NCBI GenBank assembly: GCA_947085205.1 | Contig: CAMTVO010000029.1 | Span: 1 to 33,348, forward strand | Direction: 5' to 3' | Length of the DNA: 33,348 nt | From: an uncultured Nitrospiraceae bacterium | Lineage (GTDB): Bacteria; Nitrospirota; Thermodesulfovibrionia; Thermodesulfovibrionales; Dissulfurispiraceae | Shown: piece after piece, positions 2,185 through 32,445 of the stretch | Layout of the letters: every line of letters begins with the position of its first letter | Position numbering within the stretch: position 1 is the stretch's first letter | Position numbers and translations under genes: made by a program | Notes under the pieces: model-generated | Told to the model about the DNA's origin: nothing | The model's database searches: none | What the model saw: the letters and a program-made list of their open reading frames with translations, nothing else

Positions 2185-3753
2185 TTATCTGGTAGCCCAT
2201 GAGATTATTTCATCAACAATTGCCTTTATGGTTGCCTCTTTTGGCATAATGGAGACCTTTAATCCTGCCTTTTCTATGGCCCTTGCGGTAACAGGACCTA
2301 TAACGGCTATGGTTACATCCTTTAGAACATTTATCGCGTCTTCGCCCATTATATCCACGAAATTATTGAAAGTGGCAGCGCTTGTAAATGTTGCCACAGA
2401 AATTCTTCCCTCTTTTAGAAATCTTTTTAATCTTTTGCCGTGTTTTTCAGGCTTTATCGCACGATATGCAACTGGAGTATCTATCTCACCGCCAAACTCC
2501 CTGACCTTCTGTGGGAATATCTCCCTTGCAACCTCTGCACGAGGCAAAAGGATTTTCAATCCTTTTAGTTCATAGTTCGGAGTTCGGAGTTCGGAGTTAA
2601 AACTTCTGACTTCTGACTTCTGACTTCTGACTTCTTTTAAAAATGTATCTATCAATCCTTCCGCATTAAATTCCTCAGGGATGAGATCTACCCTTATTCC
2701 ATAGTTTCTGATTGTCTCAGCAGTCTTTGTGCCTATGGCGCATATTTTAATTCCTCTCAAATCCCTGATGTCCCTATTTTTATCAAGGAGCCTTTGCATA
2801 AAGTATTTAAATCCATTTGCGCTTGTGAATATGAGCCAGTTATAAGTCTCTATACTATCTATTGATTCATCCAATTCTTTATAGCTTTCCGGCTGCGCTA
2901 TCTCTATGGTTGGAAACTCAAATATCTCTGCTCCTAAATCCTCAAGAGGTTCATACTCTGGAGTGTATTCTCTTGTAATCAAAATCCTGTGACCAAAAAG
3001 TGGTTTTTTTTCATACCACTTTAATGTATCTCTTAATTTGACCACATTTCCGACAACCATCACTGCGGGGGGCTTGATATTCTCTTCCTTAACGAGTCCA
3101 GCTATATCTTTTAAGGTGCCGACCACAGTTTTCTGATCAGGCCTTGTTCCCCATCGCACCACTGCAGTAGGAGTATCAGGAGATTTGCCATGCTCTATAA
3201 GCTTTGAAGTTATGGCACCGATATTTTTAACACCCATTAAAAAAGCAAGGGTATCAAAGCCATTGGCAAACTTAGACCAGTCTATTGAGCTTTCGGGTTT
3301 TGTTATATCCTCGTTGCCTGTAATAACTGCAAATGATGATGAATATTTTCTGTGAGTAAGAGGAATTCCTGCATATGCAGGCGCTGCTATGGATGAACTG
3401 ACTCCAGGAATTACTTCAAACTCTATGCCCTCCTTTACAAGTGTCTCTGCCTCTTCTCCTCCACGGCCGAAAACAAATGGGTCTCCGCCTTTTAGCCTGC
3501 AAACTATTTTGCCTTCTTTAGCCTTGTCCACAAGCGCTTGATTTATCTCGTCCTGTGTCATTGCATGGTGTCCGCCGCGCTTGCCTGCATAAATAAACTC
3601 AGCATCGTGATTGATGTAATTTAGTATCTGGGCATTGAGATGAAAGTCATAGACCACGGCTTCTGCCTTTTGAAGGCATTTCATGCCTTTTACCGTCAAT
3701 AGCCCGATGTCGCCGGGACCTGCACCTATGAGATATACCGTACCCTTTTTCAT
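2185..3753 (-). CDS. cobA: uroporphyrinogen-III C-methyltransferase / uroporphyrinogen-III synthase fusion (CobA/HemD)
   Basis: VYLIGAGPGD, RLKGGDPFVFGRGGEE; HemD half FTSANG, AIGTKT, FTSAAT, IGPVTA; follows hemC. Confidence 0.95.
   Translation of the reverse strand: MKKGTVYLIGAGPGDIGLLTVKGMKCLQKAEAVVYDFHLNAQILNYINHDAEFIYAGKRGGHHAMTQDEINQALVDKAKEGKIVCRLKGGDPFVFGRGGEEAETLVKEGIEFEVIPGVSSSIAAPAYAGIPLTHRKYSSSFAVITGNEDITKPESSIDWSKFANGFDTLAFLMGVKNIGAITSKLIEHGKSPDTPTAVVRWGTRPDQKTVVGTLKDIAGLVKEENIKPPAVMVVGNVVKLRDTLKWYEKKPLFGHRILITREYTPEYEPLEDLGAEIFEFPTIEIAQPESYKELDESIDSIETYNWLIFTSANGFKYFMQRLLDKNRDIRDLRGIKICAIGTKTAETIRNYGIRVDLIPEEFNAEGLIDTFLKEVRSQKSEVRSFNSELRTPNYELKGLKILLPRAEVAREIFPQKVREFGGEIDTPVAYRAIKPEKHGKRLKRFLKEGRISVATFTSAATFNNFVDIMGEDAINVLKDVTIAVIGPVTARAIEKAGLKVSIMPKEATIKAIVDEIISWATR
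2567..2635. repeat. bipartite heptamer array in frame within hemD domain
   Basis: AGTTCAT(AGTTCGG)3AGTT-aaa-(ACTTCTG)4ACTTCT; encodes EVRSQKSEVRSFNSELRTPNYEL. Confidence 0.95.
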
Positions 3754-4706
3754 TATCTTCCATAGACTTCATCGAGTATTTCTTTTGCGCCCTTTGAAAG
3801 GAGGTCTTCTGCCAGTTTTATTCCAAGATTTTCTGCATCATTTGGTACGCCTTTTATCTGTCCTTTTATAATCCTGTCTCCTGAAACGCTTCCCACAAGC
3901 CCATCTATAATGAGTTGAGGAGTTGAGGAGTTGAGGAGTCTTGCATGCGCTGCTATCGGCACCTGGCATCCGCCTTCAAGCTTTTTTAGAAATGCCCTTT
4001 CTGCCCTTACGCATACCGAGGTTTCATTGTGATTCAGTTGTGAAATCAGATTGTTTATAAATTCATCGTTAATCCTGCATTCAATCCCAACTGCCCCTTG
4101 ACCTATTGCTGGAAGGCTGACTTCAAGCTCGAGTGTTTCTGTTATCCTGTCTGCCCAGCCGAGTCTTTTAACGCCTGCTGCGGCAAGGATTATTGCGTCA
4201 AACCGGCCTTCATCCAGTTTCCTCAGCCTTGTATCGAGGTTGCCCCTTAATTGCTCGATCTTTAAATCAGACCTTATACTCAGTAATTGACATGAACGTC
4301 TGAGACTGCTTGTGCCTATGATTGCTCCATGCGGCAGGTCTTTAAAACCGTAAACCGTGAACCGTGAACCGTGAACCGGGGCGATGAATGCATCCCTCGG
4401 GTCTTCCCTTTTTGTAATCACTGGAAGATACAGACCTTCAGGAAAATCGGTAGGCACATCCTTCATGCTGTGCACGGCAATATCCGCCTCGCCTTTTAGA
4501 AGCGCCTCTTCTATCTCTTTCACGAACAATCCCTTGCCGCCTACTTTTGCGAGCGGTACATCGAGAATTTTATCTCCGGTGGTTTTGATCTTGTTAAGCT
4601 CAATTTCAAGGGCAGGATTTAACTTCTGAAGCTCCGACTTTATCCATTCTGCCTGCCAGAGCGCTAATTTGCTGCCTCTCGTGCCGATGATGATTTTATT
4701 TTTCAT
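3753..4706 (-). CDS. hemC: hydroxymethylbilane synthase (porphobilinogen deaminase)
   Basis: IGTRGSKLALWQA, GGKGLFVKE, AVHSMKDVP, GTSSLRR, LEGGCQVPIAA. Confidence 0.97.
   Translation of the reverse strand: MKNKIIIGTRGSKLALWQAEWIKSELQKLNPALEIELNKIKTTGDKILDVPLAKVGGKGLFVKEIEEALLKGEADIAVHSMKDVPTDFPEGLYLPVITKREDPRDAFIAPVHGSRFTVYGFKDLPHGAIIGTSSLRRSCQLLSIRSDLKIEQLRGNLDTRLRKLDEGRFDAIILAAAGVKRLGWADRITETLELEVSLPAIGQGAVGIECRINDEFINNLISQLNHNETSVCVRAERAFLKKLEGGCQVPIAAHARLLNSSTPQLIIDGLVGSVSGDRIIKGQIKGVPNDAENLGIKLAEDLLSKGAKEILDEVYGR
3912..3939. repeat. octamer array in frame within hemC
   Basis: (GAGTTGAG)3GAGT; encodes LLNSSTPQL. Confidence 0.9.
4346..4378. repeat. heptamer array in frame within hemC
   Basis: AACCGTA(AACCGTG)3AACCG; encodes PVHGSRFTVYGF. 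Confidence 0.92.
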
Positions 4707-4726
4707 GAGTGATTTGTCTCCCTTGA

Positions 4727-4858
4727 CCTATCCTTTTTCGGTCAGTCCAAGCTGATAAGGTTCCTCTTCTTCTATCATCAGTTTGTATGCTTCTTGAATA
4801 TTTTTTTCACTGATTTCCTTTAAGTCAACAGACAGACAGGCATCAATCGCCTCATATA
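4727..4858 (-). pseudogene. HicB-like antitoxin remnant(s)
   Basis: Startless frame LYEAIDACLSVDLKEISEKNIQEAYKLMIEEEEPYQLGLTEKG*; both YEAIDACLSVD and NIQEAYKLMIEE resemble HicB C-terminal helices. Confidence 0.45.
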
Positions 4859-5298
4859 ATATCCCCTGTATTCTTAATCCTTTTTAAATTCGTTTTATCA
4901 AATCCCTTATCAAAACTTACGATATAAGGTATCTCCAGTTCATTTGCAATGTGAACTATGAATGCATCATGGAAATTTAAAACTCCGTGATTATTTTTAA
5001 CCATATTTATCACAGAATTATAAAATCTATCCAATTCCTGATACATCCATGTAATATTTTCTTTGGGGCATATTGTTTGAAGTTTTTCAATGAAATAGTT
5101 AATATCTTTTAAGCGCTTCCTTTCATTAAATCTTCTGACAATAACATTTACTATTTCATTGATTACACAATCAAGATATACATATTGAGCATTTACCTTA
5201 ATAAGTTCCTCTTCAATCAGAGATGCTTTGTGGTGATGAATATCCTTCTCATCAATGAGTCCAATTAAATAGTTGGTATCAAGGACTGCTTTAATCAT
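4852..5298 (-). CDS. vapC: PIN-domain (VapC-family) toxin
   Basis: VLDTN, INE, FHDA, SFDKGF acidic PIN motifs; overlaps the antitoxin stop. Confidence 0.9.
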   Translation of the reverse strand: MIKAVLDTNYLIGLIDEKDIHHHKASLIEEELIKVNAQYVYLDCVINEIVNVIVRRFNERKRLKDINYFIEKLQTICPKENITWMYQELDRFYNSVINMVKNNHGVLNFHDAFIVHIANELEIPYIVSFDKGFDKTNLKRIKNTGDII

Positions 5299-5533
5299 AA
5301 ATTGCCTCAGAATCTTTTACTGCATCACCACCGACCGAAATAAGCCCCTCCAGCTTTTTCAGTTCTTTTGCAGGAATTAATTTTACTTTTATCTTTTTAG
5401 GGGTAACACGCTTTAGAACTATTTCGTTATTTTTCACTATCACATCCAGAACATCACCTTCGTCTATCCCAACGGCTTCCCTGACTTTTAAAGGTATTGT
5501 TATTTGTGCTTTTTTTTTGACCTGCACCAGCAT
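5291..5533 (-). CDS. vapB: AbrB/MazE/SpoVT-family antitoxin
   Basis: QITIPLKVREAVGIDEGDVL swapped-hairpin motif; GGAGG RBS; upstream of the PIN gene. Confidence 0.88.
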   Translation of the reverse strand: MLVQVKKKAQITIPLKVREAVGIDEGDVLDVIVKNNEIVLKRVTPKKIKVKLIPAKELKKLEGLISVGGDAVKDSEAIYD

Positions 5534-5616
5534 GGGAAATTCCTCCTTTCCGACTTTCTGAAAGTTAGACTAATGTTTGGAGGGGTAAATTGTCAAATAA
5601 TTTTGACGGGACAGGA

Positions 5617-7706: not shown

Positions 7707-8464
7707 CAGAAACAACCAAGCTCGCAGTCTTTAATTTTTATCCTAAGTTCGTTGGCAGTCTTCCCTACTTCCTTGTAAGGAATTCCAATCTCTTCGGCGA
7801 TTTTCTTTGCATCGCTGCATGTAATGCCATTCGTCGATCGTTCTTTTAAGATATTTTTGATCTCTTTTTTCTTTGTGATCATTTCTATGCAGTTTATCAA
7901 TTCCTTTATATTCTGCGATGAGTATTTCGGCGACTCTTCTTTGATAATAATGTCAGCCTGTTTCTGTATCTTATGGGCAGAGGGCTTAATCTTTCCCTTA
8001 GAAACACCAGCTATAAATACTACAATGTCCGGCTTTAAAAACTCAATTGCGCTGTTGCCTTCGATGATTATGCCGTCGAGATGTGAGAGCCTGTTGACGG
8101 CTATCGGAAGGACTTCATGGAGTTCGTTTTGAGGAGACTGAACCCATAGCACCTCTTCTGCACCTGCATCTATAAGCCTTCTTGTGTCTTTATTCTCCTG
8201 ACGGAGTATTGTATGGTCATCGATGATAGAGGCATAGAAAGCGGTTTTTGTGTATTTGATGGCGCCCCACTTGCTCCCAGTGGCCAAGGATTCGGGGGTT
8301 CGAGGATTCAAGGGAATAACCTTCTCTGCTATTAAATTTTTGGCCCCTTGACCCCTTGGCCCCTTGACCCCTTTAGTAAGATATTTTAAGATTGCAACCG
8401 CTAAGGTTGTTTTGCCGGCTCCGCTGTGAGCCCCGCCGATGCCGATGCGAAAGGGTTTTTTCAT
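7706..8464 (-). CDS. P-loop NTPase (MobB-like) with C-terminal Cys-containing HTH-like domain ending CELGCF
   Basis: GGAHSGAGKTT Walker A, DTRRLIDAGA, IIEGNS; C-terminal ITCSDAKKIA...KIKDCELGCF. Confidence 0.7.
   Translation of the reverse strand: MKKPFRIGIGGAHSGAGKTTLAVAILKYLTKGVKGPRGQGAKNLIAEKVIPLNPRTPESLATGSKWGAIKYTKTAFYASIIDDHTILRQENKDTRRLIDAGAEEVLWVQSPQNELHEVLPIAVNRLSHLDGIIIEGNSAIEFLKPDIVVFIAGVSKGKIKPSAHKIQKQADIIIKEESPKYSSQNIKELINCIEMITKKKEIKNILKERSTNGITCSDAKKIAEEIGIPYKEVGKTANELRIKIKDCELGCF
8286..8373. repeat. bipartite inverted octamer array in frame within the P-loop gene
   Basis: AAGGATTC-GGGGGTTC-GAGGATTC-AAGGG, 27-bp spacer, then GGCCCCTT-GACCCCTT-GGCCCCTT-GACCCCTT. Confidence 0.88.
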
Positions 8465-8467
8465 CGA

Positions 8468-10846
8468 TTAAGCTTCGCTGCTTGCTGTTTCTTCTTTCTT
8501 TGCCTCTTCTTTATAATCGCAGCTTTTATTTAAACAAATGTGGAAGACCTCACCAGTCTTGTTCCATCTCTCGACAAGAAAGGATGCATTACACTTGGGG
8601 CACTGTTTTGGCACAGGTTTAGACCACATTGCAAATTTGCATTCCGGATATTTGCTGCAGCTCCAGAAGGACTTGCCTCTTTTTGACCTTCTTTCGACAA
8701 TATCGCCGCCATCCAGAGGACACTTAATGCCTGTCGAGATGGGCTTTGTATTTTTACATTCGGGATATTTTGAGCACGCTAAGAATTTGCCGAATTTCCC
8801 GTTTTTTATGACCATCGCAGAACCGCACTTTTCGCAGATTTCTTCTGACTCTTGACTCTTGACTCTTGACTCTTGACTCTCTAATGGCTTTGTGTTTTTG
8901 CAGTTTGGATAAGCTGTGCATGCGAGGAATCTGCCGTGCCTTCCCCACTTTATGGCCATCAGCGAGCCGCATTTCTCGCATATCTCTTCTGTCGGAATGT
9001 CCTGCGGTTTGACCTTGTTTTGATCCTTAGATGCTGCCTTTAGGTCTTTACTGAAGGGTTCATAAAAATCATTGATGACATCAACCCATTTCATCTTGGC
9101 ATTTTCTATCTCATCCAGTTCCTCTTCCATCTTTGCCGTGAACCTATAATCTATAAGTTCAGGGAATTTATCCACCAGTAGGTCATTCACTACAATACCG
9201 AGTTCTGTCGGCATAAAGCGCCTGTCTTCATTTTTTTCGGCATATTTTCTTTCCTGTACCGTTGACAGGATTGAAGCATAGGTGCTTGGTCTTCCAATTC
9301 CCTTTTCCTCAAGCGTTTTGACGAGGGTAGCCTCTGTATATCTCGGCGGAGGCTGCGTGAAATGCTGCAGGGGCTTTATTTCCTGCAGCTGAAGGGTATC
9401 TTTCTCCTTTATGGATGGAAGAAGCCCGCCTTCCTCTTGTTCCAACTCATCCTTGCTCTCCGTATACAATGCCATGAATCCCGGAAATCTTATTACCGTG
9501 CCTGATGCCCTGAGTTCTGTACCCGTTGCCTCTATTCCCGAATCCTTTAATCCAATGATGTATGTTGTCTGTTCCAGTTGCGCGGGCGCCATCTGGCTTG
9601 CTATGAACCTGTTCCATACGAGGGTATAAAGGTTATACTGGTCTTTTGACAGAAATGACTTTACCATTTCCGGTTTTTTGTCTGGGTATGTAGGTCTTAC
9701 TGCCTCGTGCGCTTCTTGAGCACTGCCCTTGCTTTTGTAGTGCGGCGGTTTTTCGGGGAGATAATCCTTTCCGAACCGTTCCTCTACGAGGTCTCTTGCC
9801 CATTTCTGCGCTTCCGGCGCTATGCGGAAAGAGTCTGTCCTCATGTATGTAATTAAACCTACCGAGCCTTCTTCTCCTAACTCTATACCTTCATAAAGTT
9901 GCTGAGCTATCATCATGGTCTTTTTTGCAGGGAATCTAAGCCTCCTTGCAGCCTCCTGCTGCAAGGTGCTTGTAATAAAGGGAGGGGAGGGAGACCTTTT
10001 CCTGAGCTTCTGGTCTATTTTTGATAGATAGAACTCTTTGTCCTTAATCTCGTCTGTAATCTGTTGAGCGCTCTCTGCATTGGTGATAAGGAATCGCTTT
10101 CCTTCCTCTGCATCGCGGTTAATCACAAGCGAGTCGTTGTATTTATAAAGCCTTGCCGAAAACTGCGACAGGGCGCTCGTTGAACTACTTGAACTATTTG
10201 AACGATCTTTTGTGGTATGCGATTCACTGTGGAATGGTTCAACCTTTGGTTGGAAGAGCGCCTCTATTGTCCAGTATTCCTCTTTGTTAAATGACTCGAT
10301 TTCACGCTCCCTGTCAACTATAAGTTTTACCGTAACGGACTGGACCCTTCCGGCGCTTAATCCCCTTCTTACCTTTTTCCAGAGAAAGGGGCTGAGGTTG
10401 TATCCCACAAGCCTGTCGAGGATCCTGCGCGCCTGCTGGGCCTCAACCTTATTGATATCTATTTCTCCAGGGTTTTGTATCGCTTCTTTTACTGCGCGCT
10501 CGGTTATTTCGTGGAATGTTACGCGGTATACCTTTTTTGAGTTTTTGGGAGGCTTAATCTCTTCTGCTATGTGATAGGCTATGGCTTCTCCCTCCCTGTC
10601 AGGGTCTGTTGCGATGTATATCTTTTCTGCCTTTTTTGCCTCGCCTTTCAGTTCTTTTATTACCTTTTCTTTGCCGTGAATGATTTCATAGCGAGGTTTG
10701 AAATTATTATCGACATCCACTCCGAGTTCTTTCTTAGGAAGGTCTTTGACATGGCCTATGGATGCCTTTACCCCGAAATCCTTGCCGAGGATTTTATTAA
10801 TGGTCTTTGCCTTTGCCGGTGATTCAACAATAACGAGAGACTTCAA
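8468..10846 (-). CDS. topA: DNA topoisomerase I (type IA) with C-terminal zinc ribbons
   Basis: LVIVESPAKAKTI, ATDPDREGEAI, SAGRVQS, LITYMRTDS, GIGRPSTY, C4 zinc ribbons; TTG start. Confidence 0.97.
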   Translation of the reverse strand: MKSLVIVESPAKAKTINKILGKDFGVKASIGHVKDLPKKELGVDVDNNFKPRYEIIHGKEKVIKELKGEAKKAEKIYIATDPDREGEAIAYHIAEEIKPPKNSKKVYRVTFHEITERAVKEAIQNPGEIDINKVEAQQARRILDRLVGYNLSPFLWKKVRRGLSAGRVQSVTVKLIVDREREIESFNKEEYWTIEALFQPKVEPFHSESHTTKDRSNSSSSSTSALSQFSARLYKYNDSLVINRDAEEGKRFLITNAESAQQITDEIKDKEFYLSKIDQKLRKRSPSPPFITSTLQQEAARRLRFPAKKTMMIAQQLYEGIELGEEGSVGLITYMRTDSFRIAPEAQKWARDLVEERFGKDYLPEKPPHYKSKGSAQEAHEAVRPTYPDKKPEMVKSFLSKDQYNLYTLVWNRFIASQMAPAQLEQTTYIIGLKDSGIEATGTELRASGTVIRFPGFMALYTESKDELEQEEGGLLPSIKEKDTLQLQEIKPLQHFTQPPPRYTEATLVKTLEEKGIGRPSTYASILSTVQERKYAEKNEDRRFMPTELGIVVNDLLVDKFPELIDYRFTAKMEEELDEIENAKMKWVDVINDFYEPFSKDLKAASKDQNKVKPQDIPTEEICEKCGSLMAIKWGRHGRFLACTAYPNCKNTKPLESQESRVKSQESEEICEKCGSAMVIKNGKFGKFLACSKYPECKNTKPISTGIKCPLDGGDIVERRSKRGKSFWSCSKYPECKFAMWSKPVPKQCPKCNASFLVERWNKTGEVFHICLNKSCDYKEEAKKEETASSEA
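8846..8880. repeat. perfect heptamer array in frame within topA
   Basis: (TGACTCT)5; encodes ESQESRVKSQES between two zinc ribbons. Confidence 0.95.
10180..10206. repeat. nonamer array in frame within topA
   Basis: TTGAACTAC-TTGAACTAT-TTGAACGAT; inverted GTTCAA at 10237..10242. Confidence 0.75.
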
Positions 10847-11146: not shown

Positions 11147-11156
11147 CTTCTCCTCC

Positions 11157-15302: not shown

Positions 15303-17030
15303 TTAGCCTACGCTTACCTGTTTCTGCTGTTCGAACATCTCGATAATCTCTTTTACTGTATTTGTGTCTTCAGGTCTTTTGTCGAATCTGATAAAGCCTG
15401 TCGACCTCGGAAACCTTAGGGCATAGCCTATATCGTCTTTATCCCTTCCTGCAGTATGGGCAGGAGATCGGGTAATCTCGTCAGCCATAACAGTGATCAC
15501 ATATTTTGGCTCAACCCAGACATCCGCATCTATTACAGAATCAACCCTCGGGTGTTTGTGCTTTATCGAAATTTCATCGAGCATCTTTTTAAGCTCAATG
15601 AACTCGTCCTCTTTGAACCCGGAGCCTATCTTGCTTACGGTCTTAAATGTATCTGTCTCCGGTTCATAAACCGCTCCTAAAAGCGCGCCTACGCCGAATT
15701 TTGCCCTTGCGCCTTTTCCCCTGAAATATCCTACGATGCAGACATCAATGGTATCTGCAATCTCTCCTTTATAACTCCTTTTGAGCTTAATCCAGTTGAA
15801 ATTCCTTGCGCCTGCGGAATAAGGCGCATCAAGCCTTTTGGCAACAACCCCTTCAAGTCCGCGCTCAACGGCGCTTTCAAAGTATTTGAATATCTTTGAT
15901 GGATTATCTGTTACAAACATCTCTGAAGGCTCGATGATGTCGTTCTTTTTGATTATGGCCTCAAGTTTTTTTCTTCTTTCTAAAAAAGGCTTTTCCGTAT
16001 AATCAACGCCGTCCAGATAGAGCAAATCGAAAACAAAGAATTTTAATGGGAGCTCCTTTGAGAATTCCTCTATGCCGTGTTTTCTCTTTCTCTGGATTGT
16101 TACCTGAAATGGGAACAATTCCCCTGTGCCTTCATTATAGGCCAGAGCCTCTCCCTCGATAATTGCCTTTTTTGCATTGATGTATTTTTTCATTCCCATC
16201 GTGATCTCGGGGAACATGTGTGTTGTCCTTTCGAGGTTTCTCGAAAACAACTCTACCTTATCATCGTCCTTGTGGCACTGAACCCTGAATCCGTCATATT
16301 TCGCTTCAATTGCCGCCTCGCCGATTTTCTGGATAATATCTTCAGATGATGAAAGCCTTTCGCACAAGGCCATCCTTATTGGATAGCCTACCTGAACTTT
16401 GAATTTTCTTACGCCTTCTATGCCTTTTTTGATGAGCCTCTTTGCAACAAGACCCAAATCAGAGCATAGATTGTATGCCCTCTCAAGCTCAGACCTCAGT
16501 TCCCGATTACCAATGCTTAATGCAAGGGCTTCCAGCACCGTCGGGTCTCCTATCCCGAGCCGCAACCTTCCTATCACGAATCTCGCAATGTATTTTGCAT
16601 CTTTGGGAGAAACGCCTTTAAAGAGATTTGAGAGCAGGCTTATCTTCTTCTCTACGCTTCCATGTCCGCCTGTCTGTGCTATGTCCGTGAGTTCTTCATA
16701 AACCTGTTTTACTGTAAGGTCATAGCCCTCTCTCTTATTCAGTTCTTCCGCCGTCCTTCCCATGTCGCCTGTATGCCTGAAGGTCTGCTCCACTTTTTTG
16801 GTAGGCGTCTCTGTTGCGTCCGATATTGCCCGTATGAGGAGCTTTTCTGATATGCCTATTTCGAGCCCGTGAAACGGCGGCAAAAGCTGCCCCTGACTCA
16901 GGTATATTATCTTGTCTATGTCCTCTCCCGACGCCTCTTTAAAGAGTTTGGCAAGGATATCGAACATCTCCAGACGCTTTGTCGTCTCCTCAAGCCTTTC
17001 AAAATATTCCACAAGTCTTTTAAATTTCAT
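15303..17030 (-). CDS. lig: ATP-dependent DNA ligase (archaeal/eukaryotic Lig1-like architecture)
   Basis: N-terminal DNA-binding domain, EAKYDGFRVQ motif I, IEGE, FDLL, EGVVAK, WIKLK, ALRFPR. Confidence 0.92.
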   Translation of the reverse strand: MKFKRLVEYFERLEETTKRLEMFDILAKLFKEASGEDIDKIIYLSQGQLLPPFHGLEIGISEKLLIRAISDATETPTKKVEQTFRHTGDMGRTAEELNKREGYDLTVKQVYEELTDIAQTGGHGSVEKKISLLSNLFKGVSPKDAKYIARFVIGRLRLGIGDPTVLEALALSIGNRELRSELERAYNLCSDLGLVAKRLIKKGIEGVRKFKVQVGYPIRMALCERLSSSEDIIQKIGEAAIEAKYDGFRVQCHKDDDKVELFSRNLERTTHMFPEITMGMKKYINAKKAIIEGEALAYNEGTGELFPFQVTIQRKRKHGIEEFSKELPLKFFVFDLLYLDGVDYTEKPFLERRKKLEAIIKKNDIIEPSEMFVTDNPSKIFKYFESAVERGLEGVVAKRLDAPYSAGARNFNWIKLKRSYKGEIADTIDVCIVGYFRGKGARAKFGVGALLGAVYEPETDTFKTVSKIGSGFKEDEFIELKKMLDEISIKHKHPRVDSVIDADVWVEPKYVITVMADEITRSPAHTAGRDKDDIGYALRFPRSTGFIRFDKRPEDTNTVKEIIEMFEQQKQVSVG

Positions 17031-17033: not shown

Positions 17034-17063
17034 CTTATCACCTATAGCCCATTGCCTATCGCC
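17034..17063. repeat. degenerate heptamer array filling the DUF488-lig spacer
   Basis: CTTATCA-CCTATAG-CCCATTG-CCTATCG-CC. Confidence 0.7.
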
Positions 17064-17483
17064 TTATTTCGGCACCCAAACCTTTCCTTTATCTATAATA
17101 TGTTCCACGACCCATCCCCTTCTATGGAGTTCCCGTGCCATCCATCTCCTGTGGCACTTCCAAGGAAATTTCTCAGCGCATATTATTACTGCGTTATTAT
17201 GAACAGCATTTTCGAGTTTATCAATCCCCTTCCTGAATTCTTCGGTAGTAGAATAGGCTTCGTATCCGCCTTTTCTGAATCCACCGAGTTCAACACCTAA
17301 AAAGATGTAAGCTATCCCCTCTTTATTTAAAAGGTCTTCGAGATAATCTTTTGTAAATGTCTGTATCTTGCTTGTCGGAAAACGTCTGACATCGACGACT
17401 GTCTTTATGTCATAAAACAGGAGGATCTCTATGAAATCCTCCTCGCTCCTCCTGCTTGTACCAAGTGTGCATATTGTTTTCAA
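17064..17483 (-). CDS. DUF488-family protein
   Basis: TLGTSRRS, VDVRRFPTS, ELGGFR, ICAE, CHRR motifs. Confidence 0.88.
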   Translation of the reverse strand: MKTICTLGTSRRSEEDFIEILLFYDIKTVVDVRRFPTSKIQTFTKDYLEDLLNKEGIAYIFLGVELGGFRKGGYEAYSTTEEFRKGIDKLENAVHNNAVIICAEKFPWKCHRRWMARELHRRGWVVEHIIDKGKVWVPK

Positions 17484-19732: not shown

Positions 19733-19760
19733 ATAGCTCATAGCTGATAGCTGTCAGCTA
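19733..19760. repeat. heptamer array upstream of acpP
   Basis: ATAGCTC-ATAGCTG-ATAGCTG-TCAGCTA. Confidence 0.8.
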
Positions 19761-19783
19761 AAATTTTATGATGGAGGTAAGTA

Positions 19784-24494: not shown

Positions 24495-24519
24495 ATCCAA
24501 AATGTTACAATATATTACC

Positions 24520-26241: not shown

Positions 26242-27433
26242 TAAACTCCAATCGCAGGGACTTGCGGATAAGGACAAGGCGGTATTTCTTGCACTTGACG
26301 CAGAGTTATTTTCAAACAAACCAATTACTAACGATGTTTTGCAATTGAGCAAAGTCTTCGAACTCATGAATATCAATACCATCCTGTTTTCAGAACCATC
26401 TGAGCCGTACAGGAGCATTTTAAATGAGCTCGTCAGCGGTCAGTGGTCAGTGGTCAGCGGTCAAGAAGGGGACGGTATAGAAAAGATCATTCCAATGGAC
26501 TGCGAGACGAGGACATTCTTTCATGACATCCCTGTAATAAGCGATTTTTCCCCTAATGCGATAGCTGAAGCGCTCTCGCACAGGAAATCCGTAATCGTAA
26601 AGGACTGGGGCATTGTGACTTACGGCGTAGTAACCCCTGAGCAGGCATTTGTTTCATTCAGTTCCACATGTTTTTCGACATTCGTCAAATATTTCTACGA
26701 CAGCCTCATATATTTTGAAAATTGTTATGCAGAAGGGACAGCGCCCGACAATACTTATATAAGCAATTTCAATAAAATAATTCATAGCCCTCAGCCCTCA
26801 GCCCCCAGCCTTCAGCCTTTAACTGCAAAAGCTTCTGAGAATGAGGATGATGTAATTAAAATGCTTTCAGAGGCAGGAAGGGCTGTTGTGGAATACCGCC
26901 TTGTGGATTCATATTTTGGAAACATATCGTATGTTTTTGACAATAAAATTTACATAAGCCAGACAGGAAGCTCTATGGATGAACTTGAATGCTGCATAGA
27001 TGCAGTTCCGCTTGATGGCTCCTCATCAGTGGGAATAACTGCATCGTCAGAATTGTCTGCACACAAGAATATTTATCTAAAAACCGGCCATAATGCTATC
27101 TTACATGGACATCCAAAGTTCTCTGTGATAATGTCGATGCATTGCCTCAAGGAAGGATGCGACAAGAGTCTCTGCCATAAGACATGCAAAGAAAAGCGTT
27201 ATGTTGCAGGAGTTCCGGTTGTTTCCGGAGAGATAGGCACAGGCCCTACAGGCTTGATGCATACGGTTCCTTCCGCGATGAAAGAGGGGAAGGGCGCAAT
27301 TGTTTACGGCCACGGTGTTTTTACATCGGGAAAGGATAATTTTCAAAAACCTTTTGAGATGCTCATGGATATTGAGAATAGGTGCAGGGAAGGGTATCTC
27401 GAAAAGCTAAGCGAATATGGAGTATTGGAGTGA
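26213..27433 (+). CDS. class II aldolase/adducin family protein, two-domain
   Basis: C-terminal GNIS, SSELSAH, HGHP, HGVF; overlaps the aor stop. Confidence 0.82.
   Translation: MEHLIGKYLNKLQSQGLADKDKAVFLALDAELFSNKPITNDVLQLSKVFELMNINTILFSEPSEPYRSILNELVSGQWSVVSGQEGDGIEKIIPMDCETRTFFHDIPVISDFSPNAIAEALSHRKSVIVKDWGIVTYGVVTPEQAFVSFSSTCFSTFVKYFYDSLIYFENCYAEGTAPDNTYISNFNKIIHSPQPSAPSLQPLTAKASENEDDVIKMLSEAGRAVVEYRLVDSYFGNISYVFDNKIYISQTGSSMDELECCIDAVPLDGSSSVGITASSELSAHKNIYLKTGHNAILHGHPKFSVIMSMHCLKEGCDKSLCHKTCKEKRYVAGVPVVSGEIGTGPTGLMHTVPSAMKEGKGAIVYGHGVFTSGKDNFQKPFEMLMDIENRCREGYLEKLSEYGVLE
26432..26463. repeat. heptamer array in frame within aldolase
   Basis: GTCAGCG-GTCAGTG-GTCAGTG-GTCAGCG-GTCA; encodes VSGQWSVVSGQ. 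Confidence 0.92.
26786..26820. repeat. heptamer array in frame within aldolase linker
   Basis: AGCCCTC-AGCCCTC-AGCCCCC-AGCCTTC-AGCCTTT; encodes SPQPSAPSLQP. Confidence 0.9.
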
Positions 27434-27437
27434 TGGA
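27418..27437. repeat. short octamer array containing the aldolase stop codon
   Basis: TGGAGTAT-TGGAGTGA-TGGA. Confidence 0.6.
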
Positions 27438-27440
27438 TTT

Positions 27441-28448
27441 TTACTTCATCATCTCTTCAATAGTTATCTTTACAGATTCGGCAAGCGCCTCCAAATCATA
27501 ACCTCCTTCAAGGGCAAATACGACGGGAAGTTGAGAGTTTGGAGACTTCGGCGAGCCATTCGGCCCGAGCTCAGGCCGAGGGCGCAGTCGAGCCGGTCGG
27601 AGTTTAGAGTTTGATGAAGCACATGAAAGGATAGCACTTACAATTCCCCTTATCCCTTCGTCAGAAACCCTTATGCTTGCAAGCGGGTCTTCTGTGCGGA
27701 TGTCATAGCCGGCAGAAACAAGGATTATATCCGGTGCGAATCTCCTTACAAGGTCTGGGAGTATGTCGTGATAAATATGGAAGTGGTCATTATCACCTGA
27801 ACCGGATTTCATAGGAACATTGTAAGTATATCCTTTGCCTTTCCCTTTTCCACTTTCTGACTCGCTTCCTGTTCCGGGATAATGAGGATACTGATGCGTG
27901 CTGAAATAAAATACTGTGTCATCCTCTTCAAATATATGCTGCGTGCCGTTTCCATGATGAACATCAAAGTCTATGATGAAAACCTTTTCATATCCAATCT
28001 TCTGGGCATATCTTGCTCCAACGGCAACATTATTGAATATACAGAATCCCATTGCCCTGTCAGCCTCTGCATGATGTCCTGGGGGTCTGACAGCACAGAA
28101 TGCCCGCTGTATTTCACCGTCATGGCATCTTTCCACAGCCTCGATTACTGCACCTGCTGCATACAATGCTGCCTCGAGGCTGTCTTTTGACATATATGTG
28201 TCGCCGTCGAGATAACCTACGCCGAAGCTTTTTATTTTTTCGATGTAAGCATTTGTATGTGCGAGGGCAATGTCTTCATAGTCTGCCTTACGTGGTTTTA
28301 TGTGAATGAGCTTTTCCCATAGTTCTGAATTTTGCAGGGCATTCAAGATGGCTGTCAGCCTTCCTTTTGTTTCGGGATGCCATTGAGGGGTCTCGTGTTT
28401 CAGGAAGACATCATCGTATATGAATCCGGCTTTATTCACAATTTTCAT
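27441..28448 (-). CDS. histone deacetylase-family (AcuC/AphA-like) Zn-dependent deacetylase
   Basis: HPE, RPPGHHA, GFCIFNN, DFDVHHGNGTQ, SAGYD, LEGGY. Confidence 0.93.
   Translation of the reverse strand: MKIVNKAGFIYDDVFLKHETPQWHPETKGRLTAILNALQNSELWEKLIHIKPRKADYEDIALAHTNAYIEKIKSFGVGYLDGDTYMSKDSLEAALYAAGAVIEAVERCHDGEIQRAFCAVRPPGHHAEADRAMGFCIFNNVAVGARYAQKIGYEKVFIIDFDVHHGNGTQHIFEEDDTVFYFSTHQYPHYPGTGSESESGKGKGKGYTYNVPMKSGSGDNDHFHIYHDILPDLVRRFAPDIILVSAGYDIRTEDPLASIRVSDEGIRGIVSAILSCASSNSKLRPARLRPRPELGPNGSPKSPNSQLPVVFALEGGYDLEALAESVKITIEEMMK
27528..27613. repeat. heptamer array interrupted by a GC-rich palindromic element, in frame within HDAC
   Basis: AAGTTGA-GAGTTTG-GAG[~51-bp GC-rich hairpin]GTCG-GAGTTTA-GAGTTTG. 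Confidence 0.85.
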
Positions 28449-28574
28449 TGCTTCTCCCGAAAGTTGTCATTTGCTTGTCCAATTTTACCATACATATTAG
28501 TTTGTTTTGATATAATATTGGATGAAGGTCAGCCGTGCTTACCTGTGAATACCTAAATAAAGCGGAGAGTTTAT

Positions 28575-30173
28575 ATGGATAAACAATTTGGCGAGATACT
28601 CCCAGAGGAGACAAAGAAGGTTCTCAGGGACACTTTTAAGGATCTTATAGAAAAAGTTTTTCTTGAAGTCTTCATAAAAGACGATAAAGATGACCAGTTC
28701 AGCGCATTTACAACAGAGCTTATAAAAGGTATTTCCACGCTCACTGATAAAATCGAGGCTAAATTTTATAAATCTACAGATGAAACAACGCGGAATAGAA
28801 ACATAACGAGGTTTCCTGCCATTCTGATAAACCCCGATAGATACAATATCAGATATGTAGGCTCTCCGCTCGGAGAAGAGGGACGCACCTTGATAATGGC
28901 AATAATGGTTGCCTCGAACAACGGCACTATACTTTCTGATACGGCATTAAAGAGGCTTTATGAATTGAAAGCACCGAGACATATCCAGATATTTGTTTCA
29001 CCGACCTGTCCGTACTGTCCCCAGCAGGCTCTAAATGCAATCTCTGCCGCAATCGCAGTACCCGGGCTGATAACATCAGAAATAATCGAGATGTACGAGA
29101 ACAGGGATTATATAGATAGGTATCATATTGTCACTGTTCCGTTTACAGTTATCAATGATATGCCGATTGGAACAGGAGTTAAGCCTCCTGAGATATTTGT
29201 AGAGGAGATACACAACATCTCGCCGGTAGAGAAGACATTTGTTACGGTCCCAGGCGAGACTATAAATGTTGATATTGTTATTGTCGGCGGTGGGCCTGCA
29301 GGACTTACCTCTGGGATATACGCAGGCAGGAGCGGCTTAAAAACAGTGATTCTGGAAAGGACCACTGTCGGAGGGCAGGTGCTTGTAACACCTGTTGTTG
29401 AAAATTATCCGGGATTCAGCAAGATAGCCGGAAAGACCCTTGTAGATATAATGTATCAGCAGGCATTGCGATATGCGCACATATTCGAGGGAGAGGGCGT
29501 TATTGATGTAAAAAAGTCTGATGATATGTTCGAGTTGAAAACCAACAGGCGGACATTCAATGCAAAGGGGATAATTATCGCCACAGGCGCTGAGCATAAA
29601 AAACTCGATGTCCCGGGACAAAAGAGCCTTTATGGAAAGGGAGTTAGCTATTGTGCTACATGCGACGGATATTTCTTCAAGGATGGCAAGAAGGTCATTG
29701 TAGTAGGAGGTGGCAATACGGCTGTTACAGATGCGTTGTATCTGCACAACATAGGGGCAAAGGTATCATTGGTTCACAGGAGAGATAGACTGCGTGCAGA
29801 GGCATTTCTCCAGAAGAGTTTGTCAGATAATAAGATACCTGTTTATTGGAATACAGTGGTGAAGGAAATAATAGGTAAAGATCATGTGGGAGGTGTCAGG
29901 CTCCAGAACCTAAAAGATAATTCTGTAAAGATTCTGGAAGTTGATGGTGTATTTATTGCTGTAGGATATGAGCCCAATAATGAGATTGCAAAGATGCTTG
30001 GTCTTGTAATGGACAAAGAAGGCTATATTAAAGTGGATGCAAAACAGAGGACATCCATGCGCATGGTATATGCTGCAGGTGATGTAACTGGTGGTGTCAA
30101 GCAGATAGTGACTGCTGTGGGGCAGGGTGCCATTGCAGCCATAACTGCCTTTGAAGACCTGTCCAGTCCTTGA
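28575..30173 (+). CDS. thioredoxin reductase fused to an AhpF-NTD/PDO-like thioredoxin-fold domain
   Basis: N-terminal CPYC; GGGPAG, GVSYCATCDG, VGGGNTA, HRRD, YAAGD. Confidence 0.9.
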   Translation: MDKQFGEILPEETKKVLRDTFKDLIEKVFLEVFIKDDKDDQFSAFTTELIKGISTLTDKIEAKFYKSTDETTRNRNITRFPAILINPDRYNIRYVGSPLGEEGRTLIMAIMVASNNGTILSDTALKRLYELKAPRHIQIFVSPTCPYCPQQALNAISAAIAVPGLITSEIIEMYENRDYIDRYHIVTVPFTVINDMPIGTGVKPPEIFVEEIHNISPVEKTFVTVPGETINVDIVIVGGGPAGLTSGIYAGRSGLKTVILERTTVGGQVLVTPVVENYPGFSKIAGKTLVDIMYQQALRYAHIFEGEGVIDVKKSDDMFELKTNRRTFNAKGIIIATGAEHKKLDVPGQKSLYGKGVSYCATCDGYFFKDGKKVIVVGGGNTAVTDALYLHNIGAKVSLVHRRDRLRAEAFLQKSLSDNKIPVYWNTVVKEIIGKDHVGGVRLQNLKDNSVKILEVDGVFIAVGYEPNNEIAKMLGLVMDKEGYIKVDAKQRTSMRMVYAAGDVTGGVKQIVTAVGQGAIAAITAFEDLSSP

Positions 30174-30245
30174 TTTTAGGATAACAAATGAAAGATTAAA
30201 AGAAGATTAAAGGCGGTGCATTTGAATATAAGAAAAAAAGAGACA

Positions 30246-30264
30246 CCCTGCACATTATGCAGGG
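30246..30264 (-). terminator. probable terminator between convergent trxR and cytochrome genes
   Basis: CCCTGCA-catta-TGCAGGG followed on the minus strand by TGTCTCTTTTTTT. Confidence 0.5.
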
Positions 30265-30301
30265 CATTTCATTCGGAGGGATTAGCTATGGAGATAAGTG
30301 G

Positions 30302-30751
30302 TTACTTTCCAAAAGTCTGGTGGCAGTTTACACAGCCATCAAGAAGCTTTTTTGTCAGCGATAACATCAGTTTTTGCTTATTTTTGTGTGATGCGTGCGC
30401 CAGCGCCTCAAGATTTTTGTGGAACTCCTTGTCCATTTTCACGAACTCTTTAACCCTGTGTGCATTCTTTGGTATCTTTACTGCTCCTGCAATAACTCCT
30501 TCGTGAGTCTTCTCCATTGTGCCGTGCATGGATTCAAGCGCCTTGTGTGCTCTTTCACTGTCTCCCATTGCTACTGCAGAAACTACTTCGCGGAATGCAC
30601 TATCCAGAATCACCATTTCTTCAATCAATGGGTTTGTACCTGAATGCACTTCTTTTCCATCTTGCGAATTATGATGTTTTTGACCTGCTGAGAGAAACAC
30701 CGGCAATACTGCAAATGAAAGGATTACGACTGTTATTGCGACTCTTTTCAT
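30302..30751 (-). CDS. exported monoheme class II (cytochrome c'-like) cytochrome c
   Basis: Signal peptide, helical body, single C-terminal CVNCH; start MKRV with GAGGAGG RBS. Confidence 0.8.
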   Translation of the reverse strand: MKRVAITVVILSFAVLPVFLSAGQKHHNSQDGKEVHSGTNPLIEEMVILDSAFREVVSAVAMGDSERAHKALESMHGTMEKTHEGVIAGAVKIPKNAHRVKEFVKMDKEFHKNLEALAHASHKNKQKLMLSLTKKLLDGCVNCHQTFGK

Positions 30752-30812
30752 TTTAAACCTCCTCGAAAAGAATTTGTGGATATAAATATATACTGCCTGC
30801 AAGCAACGGCTG

Positions 30813-30828
30813 TATGATTTAAATCATA
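30813..30828. promoter_or_regulatory. CRP/FNR-family-like operator
   Basis: Perfect palindrome TATGATTTAAATCATA (ATGAT-N4-ATCAT), about 30 bp upstream of a TATATT -10 candidate (30785..30790, minus strand). Confidence 0.6.
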
Positions 30829-30913
30829 TTATGCTATTATCCTTGAATGCATTGTTTCTCTTGATAAATTATGCATCATCCGCTATGATTTAAAGAAAAG
30901 AGTAGGAGGCAGC

Positions 30914-31138
30914 ATGATTACCAAAGAGCAGGTCGAAGGTGTTCTGGATAAAATCAGGGTAGGCCTTAAGACAGAAGGCGGAGATGTTGAATTAATCGAC
31001 ATAAAAGACGATATAATATATGTGAGGCTGACGGGTGCATGCGGCACTTGTCCAATGTCTACGTTAACTTTAAAGAACTGGGTTGAAACAACCATGAAAA
31101 AAGAAATACCGGAGGTTAAGGCAGTACAGGCGATATGA
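30914..31138 (+). CDS. NifU-C/Nfu-domain Fe-S carrier protein
   Basis: EGGDVEL, GACGTCPMSTLTLK; AGGAGG RBS. Confidence 0.92.
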   Translation: MITKEQVEGVLDKIRVGLKTEGGDVELIDIKDDIIYVRLTGACGTCPMSTLTLKNWVETTMKKEIPEVKAVQAI

Positions 31139-32445
31139 TTAAACAGCAGTCAGCAGTCAGCAGTCAGCAGTCGGCAGTCGGCAGAGAAAAGATATTTTTG
31201 AAAACAATCTGCTTACTGCTTACTGCTTACTGCTTACTTATCTTTCCTGCCATAGGCAGTTCTGAAGAGACAATAGAGGTAAAGGGTCTCAGGCATTGGT
31301 CTACCTCTGAATACATAAGGGTTGTGATTGACCTCTCAGGACCTGCTGAATTCACCAAAGGAAAACTATCCAATCCGGAAAGGCTCTTCTTTGACATCAG
31401 GAATGCAAGGCTTATAAAGGGTATCCAGACAAACATTTCAATCGGCGGCAAAGCATTGAAAATGGTGCGTATGGGCCAGTTCAACGCCAATACGGTAAGA
31501 ATTGTTTTTGACCTTGAAACACCGGATTATGATTTCAAGGTTTTCAGCCTTGAAGACCCAGCTCGGCTTGCAATAGATATCTATTCGAAAGAAGCAAGAG
31601 AAAATAAAGGCGACATAAAGACAGAGGCAAAAATAGAAGACAGAAGACAGAGGACAGAAGACAGGATAGCAGAAAGAATTTTTGTGCAGAGAAGAATTGT
31701 GGTGGATCCAGGACACGGCGGACACGACCCGGGCGCTGTAGGCCCAAACGGCCTTTACGAAAAGGATGTTGTTCTGGACATAGCACTTAAAGTAAGAGAT
31801 ATTATAAAAAGAGAGTATCCACACTATGAAGTTGTTTTAACCCGCGATACCGATGTCTTTATTCCCCTTAAGGACAGGGCAAGGATTGCAAACAATACAG
31901 GCGCAGACCTTTTCTTATCGATTCACGCAAATGCGAGTCCGAACAAACAAGCGCGAGGCATAGAGACATACTTTCTTAACTGGACGGACGACGAAGATGC
32001 GTTGAGGGTTGCCGCGAGGGAAAACGCCATATCGGTAAAGAAGATGAAACAGGTGCAAAGCGAGCTCGGCGTTATCCTCGCTTCGCTCGACAGGGACAGA
32101 AAAAGGGACGACTCTATTAAACTTGCAGGCAACATCCATAAGGCAATTGTTGAAAATATAAAGCCGCAATACCCGAAGGTGAACGACCTCGGTATTAAGA
32201 GCGCGCTATTTTATGTGCTTGTTGATGCGGAAATGGCTTCAGCCCTTGCAGAGGTTTCGTTTATAAGCAACAAGGAAGAAGAGAAGCTGTTATCAGACGA
32301 TGAATATAGACGGCAACTGGCCTATTCTCTTGTTGCCGGAATAAACTCCTATTTTTCAGCGGCACCCAAGCAGAAGATTGCAATGCATAAAAAATCCTCG
32401 GGCGGAATTTATAAGGCAAAGCGTGTCAAATACACGCGCCGATAG
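31135..32445 (+). CDS. amiC: N-acetylmuramoyl-L-alanine amidase (AMIN + Amidase_3, AmiC-like)
   Basis: AMIN-like RVVIDL...PERLFFDI; DPGHGGHDPGA, EKDVVL, LSIHANAS, AEVSFISN. Confidence 0.92.
   Translation: MIKQQSAVSSQQSAVGREKIFLKTICLLLTAYCLLIFPAIGSSEETIEVKGLRHWSTSEYIRVVIDLSGPAEFTKGKLSNPERLFFDIRNARLIKGIQTNISIGGKALKMVRMGQFNANTVRIVFDLETPDYDFKVFSLEDPARLAIDIYSKEARENKGDIKTEAKIEDRRQRTEDRIAERIFVQRRIVVDPGHGGHDPGAVGPNGLYEKDVVLDIALKVRDIIKREYPHYEVVLTRDTDVFIPLKDRARIANNTGADLFLSIHANASPNKQARGIETYFLNWTDDEDALRVAARENAISVKKMKQVQSELGVILASLDRDRKRDDSIKLAGNIHKAIVENIKPQYPKVNDLGIKSALFYVLVDAEMASALAEVSFISNKEEEKLLSDDEYRRQLAYSLVAGINSYFSAAPKQKIAMHKKSSGGIYKAKRVKYTRR
31144..31238. repeat. bipartite inverted heptamer array forming the amidase N-terminus
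   Basis: (CAGCAGT)4CGGCAGT-CGGCAG, 24-bp spacer, (CTGCTTA)4CT. Confidence 0.95.
31635..31664. repeat. heptamer array in the amidase interdomain linker
   Basis: AGAAGAC-AGAAGAC-AGAGGAC-AGAAGAC-AG; encodes EDRRQRTEDR. Confidence 0.9.

Follow-up and report, generated by a model that had tools for sequence, protein, structure and literature searches.

How do short tandem arrays of 7- and 8-base units come to be written in frame into the housekeeping proteins of an uncultured Nitrospiraceae bacterium? We addressed this question in the genome GCA_947085205.1 (hereafter G000; completeness 89.7%), starting from a window that comprises positions 1 to 33,348 of contig CAMTVO010000029.1 (33,348 nucleotides), whose genes were named by Pfam, with the P-loop gene giving a sub-cutoff MobB match only. 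Tandem Repeats Finder recovered 11 of the 14 loci of the original prediction at the places given there (2574/2602, 3912, 4346, the P-loop locus through its 8340 arm, 8846, 10180, 19733, 26432, 26786, 31144/31209, and 31635), confirming that the arrays are real, while the degenerate 17034, 27418, and 27528 loci and 8286 arm were seen by inspecting the sequence, not called by the program. Contigs of X1, a run from a near-identical strain that may be a source of this DNA (all 7 runs examined were contigs), bridge 2567-2635, 8286-8373, 8846, and 10180 with zero differences to the window, and an RNA contig (n = 1, related strain) runs through the 4346 array with no gap, an observation relevant to the RNase III excision that characterises 23S rRNA intervening sequences.

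We refer to purine-type arms as L and pyrimidine-type arms as R, paired as inverted L then R. Three loci had been read as carrying two inverted arms, and their polarity holds. In cobA-hemD (minus strand), an in-frame L arm of CAGAAGT (4.9 copies; 2602..2635) is partnered by an R arm of AACTCCG (2567..2598), and the pair (2567..2635) adds 16 residues relative to the related genome G008 and forms no stable hairpin. The P-loop (MobB-like) gene (minus strand) carries an octamer L arm (4.2 copies with a period-16 alternation; 8340..8373) and a degenerate R partner (8286..8322), together (8286..8373) adding 22 residues relative to G008. At the amidase N-terminus (plus strand), an L arm of CAGCAGT (5.9 copies; 31144..31184), the most frequent unit in G000, lies in the polar head, and an R arm of CTGCTTA (4.3 copies; 31209..31238), which pairs with it as a strong hairpin, codes for the hydrophobic core of a segment resembling a signal peptide.

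Other loci carry single arms or runs. On the minus strand, hemC contains an octamer R arm (3.5 copies; 3912..3939, residues 256-265) and a length-neutral L arm of GGTTCAC (4.7 copies; 4346..4378, residues 110-121). In topA (minus strand), an L arm of CAAGAGT (5 copies; 8846..8880) stands in place of the zinc-ribbon linker, which is 25 residues long here and 26-28 in the 14 orthologues examined, all of them repeat-free, and a 9-mer (2.7 copies; 10180..10203) occupies a loop that exceeds its counterpart in most orthologues by about 16 residues. The class II aldolase gene (plus strand) has an L arm (4.6 copies; 26432..26463; net +12 residues relative to G008), an R arm (4.6 copies; 26786..26819) in a segment of equal length in G007 and G008, and an octamer run of about 2.6 copies (27414..27436) across its stop codon. 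A further L arm, of GACAGAA (4.3 copies; 31635..31664, plus strand), lies in the AMIN-amidase linker, where segment length is equal in G008 and G018. The HDAC locus (27528..27615, minus strand) needed redescription: a nested GC-rich hairpin interrupts a single R arm, and the segment reaches 44 residues, compared with 15-17 in all but one of the 14 orthologues examined. A degenerate L arm (17034..17070, minus strand) ends just 5' of the DNA ligase start codon, and an intergenic, self-pairing heptamer run (19733..19761, plus strand) precedes a small ORF, which we take to encode an acyl carrier protein. Most loci lie inside ORFs, as proposed, but 27418 crosses the stop codon of the aldolase gene (27431-27433), and the 17034 arm, described as intergenic, overlaps the DUF488 stop; neither is thus simply in-frame or simply intergenic.

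The arrays far exceed chance. In the window, exact runs with at least 14 matches numbered six at period 7 and one at period 8, whereas 200 triplet shuffles gave a mean of 0.0 for either period. The G000 genome has 89 and 20 exact runs at these periods, respectively (0 in 3 shuffles). A genome-wide codon-preserving test, which had been proposed for the period-7/8 excess, bore it out: all called ORFs held 82 period-7, 17 period-8, and one period-9 runs, against 0 period-7 and 0 period-8 runs in each of five synonymous-codon resamplings. Genome-wide, we found 218 period-7/8 arrays, of which 187 lie within ORFs (144 ORFs; 86%, near the coding fraction) and 212 have a copy number of at most 5.5. 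Arrays near ORF 5' ends numbered 61 (26 expected) and near 3' ends 2 (21 expected), a bias to which we attach little weight because start codons were called mechanically and stop-crossing arrays were excluded. Each locus has its own unit within the window, as had been claimed, but not genome-wide, where 184 heptamer arrays share 75 units (~166 expected); octamer units number 20, and G000 alone holds at least 95 distinct units. The suggested N-R-N-N-R-N-T register did not hold as a strong motif: it matches 157 of the 184 genome arrays but, when any register is allowed, 56% of random heptamers match as well, and the motif is therefore weak. The fitted arm profile gave 3.10 nats per unit, compared with 2.43-2.56 for random words. 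Cyanobacterial STRR sequences are heptamer repeats with one dominant unit, mostly intergenic; of these features, G000 has the period-7 excess but neither one or a few dominant units nor a mainly intergenic location.

Arm pairs no more than 100 bp apart have a fixed order in G000, with L then R in 20 of 24 by profile and, for the same 24 by purine content, 18 L then R and one reversed. Of the three window pairs, the amidase pair alone is predicted to fold stably as DNA (z = -5.4; P-loop, z = -0.8; cobA, z = +2.1), and Rfam gave no gathering-score match in the window. Arrays might be selected regulatory sites or mRNA hairpins, since regulatory roles have been suggested for the Geobacter, Beggiatoa, and Xanthomonas repeats (PMC2700814, PMC4679880, PMC4692102) and some arms stop just 5' of start codons (17034). 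However, coding-strand orientation is balanced (93 vs 94), the cobA pair does not fold, and units turn over at shared sites, which makes this explanation highly improbable; the lack of a G-U pair bias on the sense strand (8 vs 12 in cassettes, 25 vs 20 in ORF pairs) speaks against selection for mRNA hairpins.

We further examined the ORFs encoding four-helix-bundle (4HB) proteins (PF05635/TIGR02436), of which G000 has three, none on the window contig and all sited between protein-coding ORFs, with 79 across 27 of 41 genomes. By eye, two G000 loci (L001 and L002) show an arm-gene-arm layout with heptamers upstream of the ORF. By score, complementary arms occur at 16 of the 32 4HB loci examined (the other half failed the arm test), compared with 3 of 1,726 control ORFs in G000, one of which is a 4HB gene itself; a cassette framed by inverted arrays, as had been envisaged, is thus supported, and the 4HB gene inside was among the originally suggested candidates. 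When 11,512 open frames were scanned leniently for other passengers, a noisy set of 36 proved to be framed by L and R arms, with the 4HB gene as the sole clear one, and G000 contains no GxxExxY gene. Units beside the 4HB genes of G008 match 76 of its 166 dispersed arrays (at most one mismatch), compared with 21 of 229 arrays in G000 (P = 6e-17). In G000, the 4HB genes offer a single scorable unit, matching 4 of 229 arrays, which counts against a cassette source. Arm flanks resembled 4HB starts at 14 or more bases in 38 vs 24 of 218 cases (P = 4e-4), a small effect, and likeness to 4HB ends was not significant (P = 0.06; 218 arrays). No empty-versus-filled comparison was obtained for gene-bearing cassettes, as one of ten had a syntenic site, occupied by another hairpin.

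This layout resembles the Coxiella 23S rRNA intervening sequence, in which terminal inverted repeats bound a PF05635-type ORF (S23p) and tandem heptamers lie immediately 5' of its start codon, and GACAGAA, one of the units given there, is that of the window 31635 array (PMC4990558). In contrast, protein-coding genes flank the G000 cassettes, and arms without a gene stand in frame in 144 ORFs; the heptamers are not treated as a dispersed family in the sections of PMC4990558 considered here. Multicopy sequences of Geobacter metallireducens (PMC2700814) likewise have four or five hepta- or octanucleotide units in opposite-strand pairs, also within genes, and the unit of the cobA arm is identical to their consensus MTYCTGA, but they were taken as regulator binding sites, with no tie to 4HB genes or loop replacement in the sections considered. 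The repeats of Xanthomonas and Nostoc (PMC4692102) and the TAACTGA repeats of Beggiatoa (PMC4679880) are also heptamers favouring about four units, with 70 convergent inverted pairs in one Xanthomonas genome (PMC4692102), whereas they use one dominant, mostly intergenic unit and G000 has 95 units, 86% of arrays being in ORFs. Borg tandem repeats (PMC9879509) are similarly fast-evolving and translated inside proteins, but their units in ORFs are divisible by three; with units of 7 or 8, one array here reads through all three frames. We found no paper tying heptamer arms to 4HB genes as a rule; how new this link is may depend on the supplements of PMC2700814 and PMC3543383.

Gene-less arm-spacer-arm elements form families of 8, 14, 15, and 4 copies with conserved spacers. 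One 95-bp element, 98.9% identical between copies, lies in frame in two enzymes that otherwise do not align, where it encodes 34 residues (94% identical). The view that no single element is being copied consequently fails genome-wide. Family B has 13 copies in G000; among 389 other genomes of the class, just 4 have it, with one or two copies each. For this family we found no gene-bearing parent, the 13 copies and one genome-collection locus all being gene-less. Like MITEs, the G000 elements are short, non-coding, and multicopy with terminal inverted repeats, and like Rickettsia palindromic elements, one element can stand in frame in unrelated enzymes (PMC10969869). They differ from both in having tandem units, often single arms, in often replacing rather than adding sequence, and in lacking a target-site duplication (the longest direct repeat across the ends of 15 net-insertion segments was not above control, with fuzzy borders). 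Y1 transposases were present in all 5 genomes searched for them, but they are doubtful mobilisers: neither of the two inspected matches the arms, each having inverted repeats of its own.

The templated synthesis suggested originally found no support in the form of a reverse transcriptase: PF00078 gave no match in G000, G021, and G013, and one each in G002 and G008. Homing of diversity-generating retroelements leads to replacement of a target segment, but no reverse transcriptase was found in G000, and its targets are many and unrelated. A telomerase-like or other templated enzyme might extend broken DNA ends before joining, and addition to both 3' ends would yield exactly the L-then-R polarity, replace loop DNA without target duplication, and fit the often unmatched units of paired arms in ORFs. 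The lack of a PF00078 match in the three genomes (G000 being 89.7% complete), the 95 or more units in one genome, and the copying of whole elements with common spacers nevertheless make such an enzyme very unlikely.

The hemC sites offer a closer view. At 3912, relatives have either an empty form of 8 residues, a complete L-spacer-R element, or one arm alone. The codons after the 4346 arm resemble a 4HB gene start, and X1 has a C-run/G-run hairpin instead of this arm: its 2,022-nt contig, which also bridges 3912, differs by 17 substitutions and 18 added bases, all within 4340-4389 (contigs of X2, X3, and X5 do not bridge the loop). Among 82 hemC loop junctions, which are kin and not independent, 58 share at least 14 of 21 bases with a 4HB start, compared with 0.7% of random in-frame 21-mers; HemC itself needs similar residues at this junction by alignment to E. 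coli, which counts against this evidence. G014 and G017 have arms in hemC yet no PF05635 match. Loops might also spread between lineages as very short homologous patches, by natural transformation or similar, with the cassette only an ultimate source. The X1 allele has three synonymous changes beside the loop (4382, 4386, 4389) and none elsewhere in 2 kb, the G013 array is nearly the same as that of G000 at 80% core identity, and the window contains a DprA gene. However, G000 itself has 43 copies of the hairpin family to which the X1 element belongs, only non-homologous copying can place identical elements in unrelated genes, and polarity and genome-specific units are left unexplained, so we judge this route unlikely.

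Comparison of 122 orthologous sites in G008 revealed an array at 43 (background mean 1.85, maximum 4), with the same unit in four. Length was within two residues of the G008 orthologue at 45 of the 122 sites, and at 24 of 79 array-free sites. Lineage-specific insertion, expected from the original prediction, is therefore not supported as the rule, and length-neutral sites could alternatively be old arrays that decayed in G008. Replication slippage biased to 7 or 8 bases could amplify local words, selection retaining in-frame products, and a polymerase-slippage origin of heptamer excess was proposed earlier (as cited in PMC4679880). The hemC loop falls mostly into 10- and 17-residue classes, 21 bases apart with units in one register, which suggests that slippage or deletion probably acts after arrival. 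As an origin it is largely refuted and highly doubtful: a unit copy occurred in 31% of 80 array-free G008 segments against 26 ± 4% for random same-class units, by which local seeding was rejected as the array source, and fixed polarity, conserved spacers, and the match to cassette arms go unexplained. A dedicated process rather than plain slippage, as first proposed, is thus supported. The accompanying idea of selection holds in that arrays are kept in tolerant places, although the repeat-coded residues of HemC are predicted to be ordered beta-hairpins, not floppy loops.

We observed the cassette layout, gene-less multicopy elements, fixed polarity, reuse of sites with different units, and length-neutral replacement. 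We consider it probable that the arrays are arms of the 4HB-cassette family, likely pasted in the form of short patches that then pass a reading-frame filter. The source form would be two inverted arms, purine-type first, of about four 7- or 8-base units each around a PF05635 gene; gene-less arm pairs or single arms would then be pasted into tolerant gene spots, often replacing resident DNA. Arrival as short DNA patches is the likely reason that the same loops hold different words in relatives. A patch may pair with its target through a few matching bases, either an older arm or 4HB-start-like codons, out-of-frame events would be purged, and later 21-base deletions or slippage may trim and even out the arms. 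The ceiling on array size (at most 5.5 copies in 212 of 218) fits this family: the 4HB homologue structure 2GSC has five chains and is described as a homopentamer (PMC4990558). Avd, also pentameric, has been likened to S23 proteins (bioRxiv 10.1101/2023.10.23.563531). A pentameric 4HB protein might bind four to five units and promote copying by host repair enzymes. More tentatively, and less likely than not, such an S23p/Avd-like pentamer may drive a mobile system free of transposase and reverse transcriptase that reads four to five units and overwrites housekeeping loops, linkers, and signal peptides order-wide, as a proteome-wide patch diversifier.

These findings connect the excess of heptamer repeats in bacteria with the role of the S23p/PF05635 family. 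On this reading, short foreign patches repeatedly rewrite, at fixed sites, segments of essential enzymes (HemC, TopA) as well as many export signals, a route of protein evolution unlike the insertion of a fixed element.

The arrays of tandem 7- and 8-base units are a real feature of the source genome (G000; 1.885 Mb, 89.7% complete, with the window as its contig C29). Across the whole genome there were 89 exact runs of at least 14 matches with period 7 and 20 with period 8, compared with at most five at each remaining period except period 14 (17), while three shuffles of the genome gave none at periods 7 and 8. Within ORFs, 82 period-7 and 17 period-8 exact runs were detected, as against none in five synonymous resamplings. 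A mismatch-tolerant scan identified 237 arrays, 218 of them with period 7 or 8, and copy number was at most 5.5 in 212 of these 218. We located 187 of the 218 within 144 ORFs; because this share (86%) compares with a coding fraction of 92% by the ORF calls made in this analysis, arrays are tolerated in genes and not enriched there. Tandem Repeats Finder recovered 11 of the 14 array loci named in the original prediction, the other three (17034, 27418 and 27528) being degenerate. Contigs of sequencing run X1, which may be the DNA source of the assembly and is thus not independent of it, span the cobA (2567/2602), P-loop (8286/8340) and topA (8846 and 10180) arrays exactly. The suggested N-R-N-N-R-N-(T) register is weak as a motif, as 56% of random heptamers also fit it; the 184 heptamer arrays of G000 were drawn from 75 units, compared with about 166 expected. 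Two short palindrome-like stretches (241-300 and 1986-2060) also flank a group of small AT-rich genes at the contig start.

Purine-type arrays (L arms) and pyrimidine-type arrays (R arms) are paired with a fixed polarity. Among 24 G000 pairs of neighbouring arrays at most 100 bp apart, the order was L then R in 20 by the fitted profile and in 18 by purine content, the latter with one reversed pair; no such order was found among G000 neighbours more than 200 bp apart. The signal was weaker in the genome of a relative, G008 (6 LR, 5 LL, 2 RR and 0 RL). Selection on mRNA pairing left no sign in the arm pairs, and only one of the three window pairs folded well.

Arms also frame a small four-helix-bundle gene (4HB; PF05635, TIGR02436) in what we call a cassette. 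G000 contains three 4HB genes, none on the window contig; two have an L arm upstream of the start and its reverse complement downstream of the stop, and the arm framing of the third is ambiguous. We found 79 matches to these families in 27 of 41 genomes and examined the 32 loci with available DNA, of which 17 had arms on both sides, complementary in 16; under a similar rule, complementary arms flanked 3 of 1,726 G000 ORFs, one being the 4HB gene itself. Units beside the seven 4HB matches of G008 fit 76 of its 166 dispersed arrays with at most one mismatch, but only 21 of 229 in G000 (exact matches, 35 versus 5 arrays). Counter-evidence came from G000, whose own cassettes yielded one scorable unit, fitting 4 of 229 G000 arrays. 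Units taken from 29 cassettes of relatives fitted 72 of 216 G000 arrays (random words, 34-52) and matched 16 exactly (random words, 0-3). It follows that most G000 arrays have donors that are lost, unassembled or other than 4HB cassettes. The near-identical G008 cassettes L040, L064 and G008:C1:1506221 carry an internal stop and adjoin CRISPR-repeat-like sequence, and one of the three is separated by about 16 kb from the single reverse transcriptase of G008 (894-residue frame). Both genes flanking the G000 cassette L001, presumably GDP-mannose dehydratase and GDP-fucose synthase, bear an in-frame R arm (650-672 and about 2120-2160 of L001), that of the first having the cassette's own unit.

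Whole elements lacking a gene are copied as well. Four of five element seeds in G000 each led to a distinct family (8, 14, 15 and 4 copies) whose copies have spacers in common, and the fifth overlaps the 14-copy family; many copies sit between co-directional genes. One 95-bp element, 98.9% identical, occurs in frame in two proteins (which we take to be a MoeA-like protein and dihydroorotase) alignable only over its 34 residues. One family is present 13 times in G000, and 4 of the 389 further genomes of the class gave one or two matches to it. By eye, its spacer reads as ten codons like those of a 4HB start, but a search for its gene-bearing parent found none.

We then compared array sites between G000 and G008. 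Of the 187 in-ORF arrays, 9 were set aside for want of a G008 orthologue and 51 for want of anchors on their flanks, which left 127 arrays, distributed over 122 sites. G008 also had an array at 43 sites (background mean, 1.85), with the identical unit in only four. Segment length agreed within two residues at 45 of the 122 sites, was at least five residues longer in G000 at 42 and at least three shorter at 21, and no target-site duplication was seen at 15 net-insertion segments. Local seeding, by which arrays would grow from units already in place, was not evident: the unit was present in 31% of 80 array-free G008 segments versus 26 ± 4% for same-class random units. Four window arrays are length-neutral (topA 8846, aldolase 26786, amidase 31635 and hemC 4346), and those in cobA (2567/2602), P-loop (8286/8340), aldolase (26432), topA (10180) and HDAC (27528) add residues. 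Runs X6 and X7, from one sample, lack 12 bases at topA 9526-9537, a variable loop where relative G011 has an arm pair. In a short-word BLAST against G000 and G008, the GC-rich hairpin inside the HDAC arm (27546-27600) was not matched elsewhere.

Across about 100 hemC relatives, the first loop mostly has 17 or 10 residues and holds L arms that vary in unit but share one register, and the second is found as an 8-residue empty form or filled with whole L-spacer-R elements of multiple unit types, single arms or nested hairpins. Fills differed, by eye, in four of five distinct close pairs (core identity, 0.905-0.941). The window's allele length recurs in relative G013 and in an RNA contig that a different study obtained from a related strain. 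A 2,022-nt contig of run X1 is identical to the window outside 4340-4389; within that stretch, an in-frame fill with 17 substitutions and 18 added bases takes the place of the array, a single contig-level observation. This fill is a C-run/G-run hairpin and belongs to a second family, present 43 times in G000 (e.g., C10:45840 and C42:524; 32 in ORFs) and seven times in G008. Such hairpins fill the same hemC loops in G021, G002, locus L155 and run X1, and are nested within heptamer arms at loci L208 and L232. Run X1 also contains an allele that is 201 bases longer at 4756-4758 (depth, 85.6), between hemC and the next gene. In 58 of 82 sequences, the last seven hemC-loop codons agree with a 4HB gene start in at least 14 of the 21 bases, a level reached by 0.7% of random in-frame 21-mers, and several fills look like an L arm that runs into apparent first 4HB codons. 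Given that HemC requires similar residues at this junction, the loop end may offer cassette ends a natural landing pad; over the whole genome, the likeness of arm flanks to 4HB starts is a small effect. AlphaFold placed both hemC arrays (3912 and 4346) in predicted ordered beta-hairpins (block pLDDT, 88-96), with the best model at 90.0 and the other four at 68-76. Translated R arms are hydrophobic and L arms polar, and of the 36 ORFs that carry an R arm within their first 55 codons, 28 were signal-peptide-like versus 309 of 1,520 others, a partly circular comparison by a crude hydropathy rule.

As a whole, the directly observed cassette layout, polarity, whole-element copying, site reuse and replacement are, we think with somewhat better than even confidence, best explained by the pasting of 4HB-cassette arms into genes. 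Our results suggest the cassette link more firmly than this explanation in full, and the pasting step and protein role less firmly. Arms would be delivered in short patches, with a few matching bases as the guide, frameshifting events would be purged, and arms might later be trimmed in 21-base steps. A 4HB pentamer that may bind the units could take part: 2GSC, a homologue, consists of five chains, a number that agrees with the limit of about five units per array. Searches of G000 (89.7% complete), G021 and G013 for a reverse transcriptase found none. Y1 transposases are present, and the two inspected have ends other than array arms; these genes (G000:C5:2718-3255 and G008:C1:2045142-2046024), presumably of the REP-associated type, each have their own short flanking inverted repeats. 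The ATP-dependent DNA ligase at 15303-17030, with N-terminal, catalytic and C-terminal Pfam domains, is a possible host enzyme for patch joining.

The sequence class of these arrays is already in print. In the portions of the papers available, Geobacter has paired hepta- and octanucleotide arrays of four to five units, also within genes (PMC2700814), Xanthomonas has convergent heptamer pairs of four units (PMC4692102), Beggiatoa repeats are published (PMC4679880), the Coxiella IVS carries heptamers upstream of S23p (PMC4990558), and RPEs lie in frame within genes (PMC10969869). In a literature search of main texts, mostly non-subscription, no paper tied the arms to PF05635 as a rule. The present analysis adds measurements of how reused sites have had their DNA replaced, a genome-specific agreement of dispersed arrays with cassette units, the resemblance of the hemC junction to 4HB starts, and the swap of the hemC fill between near-identical strains in run X1.
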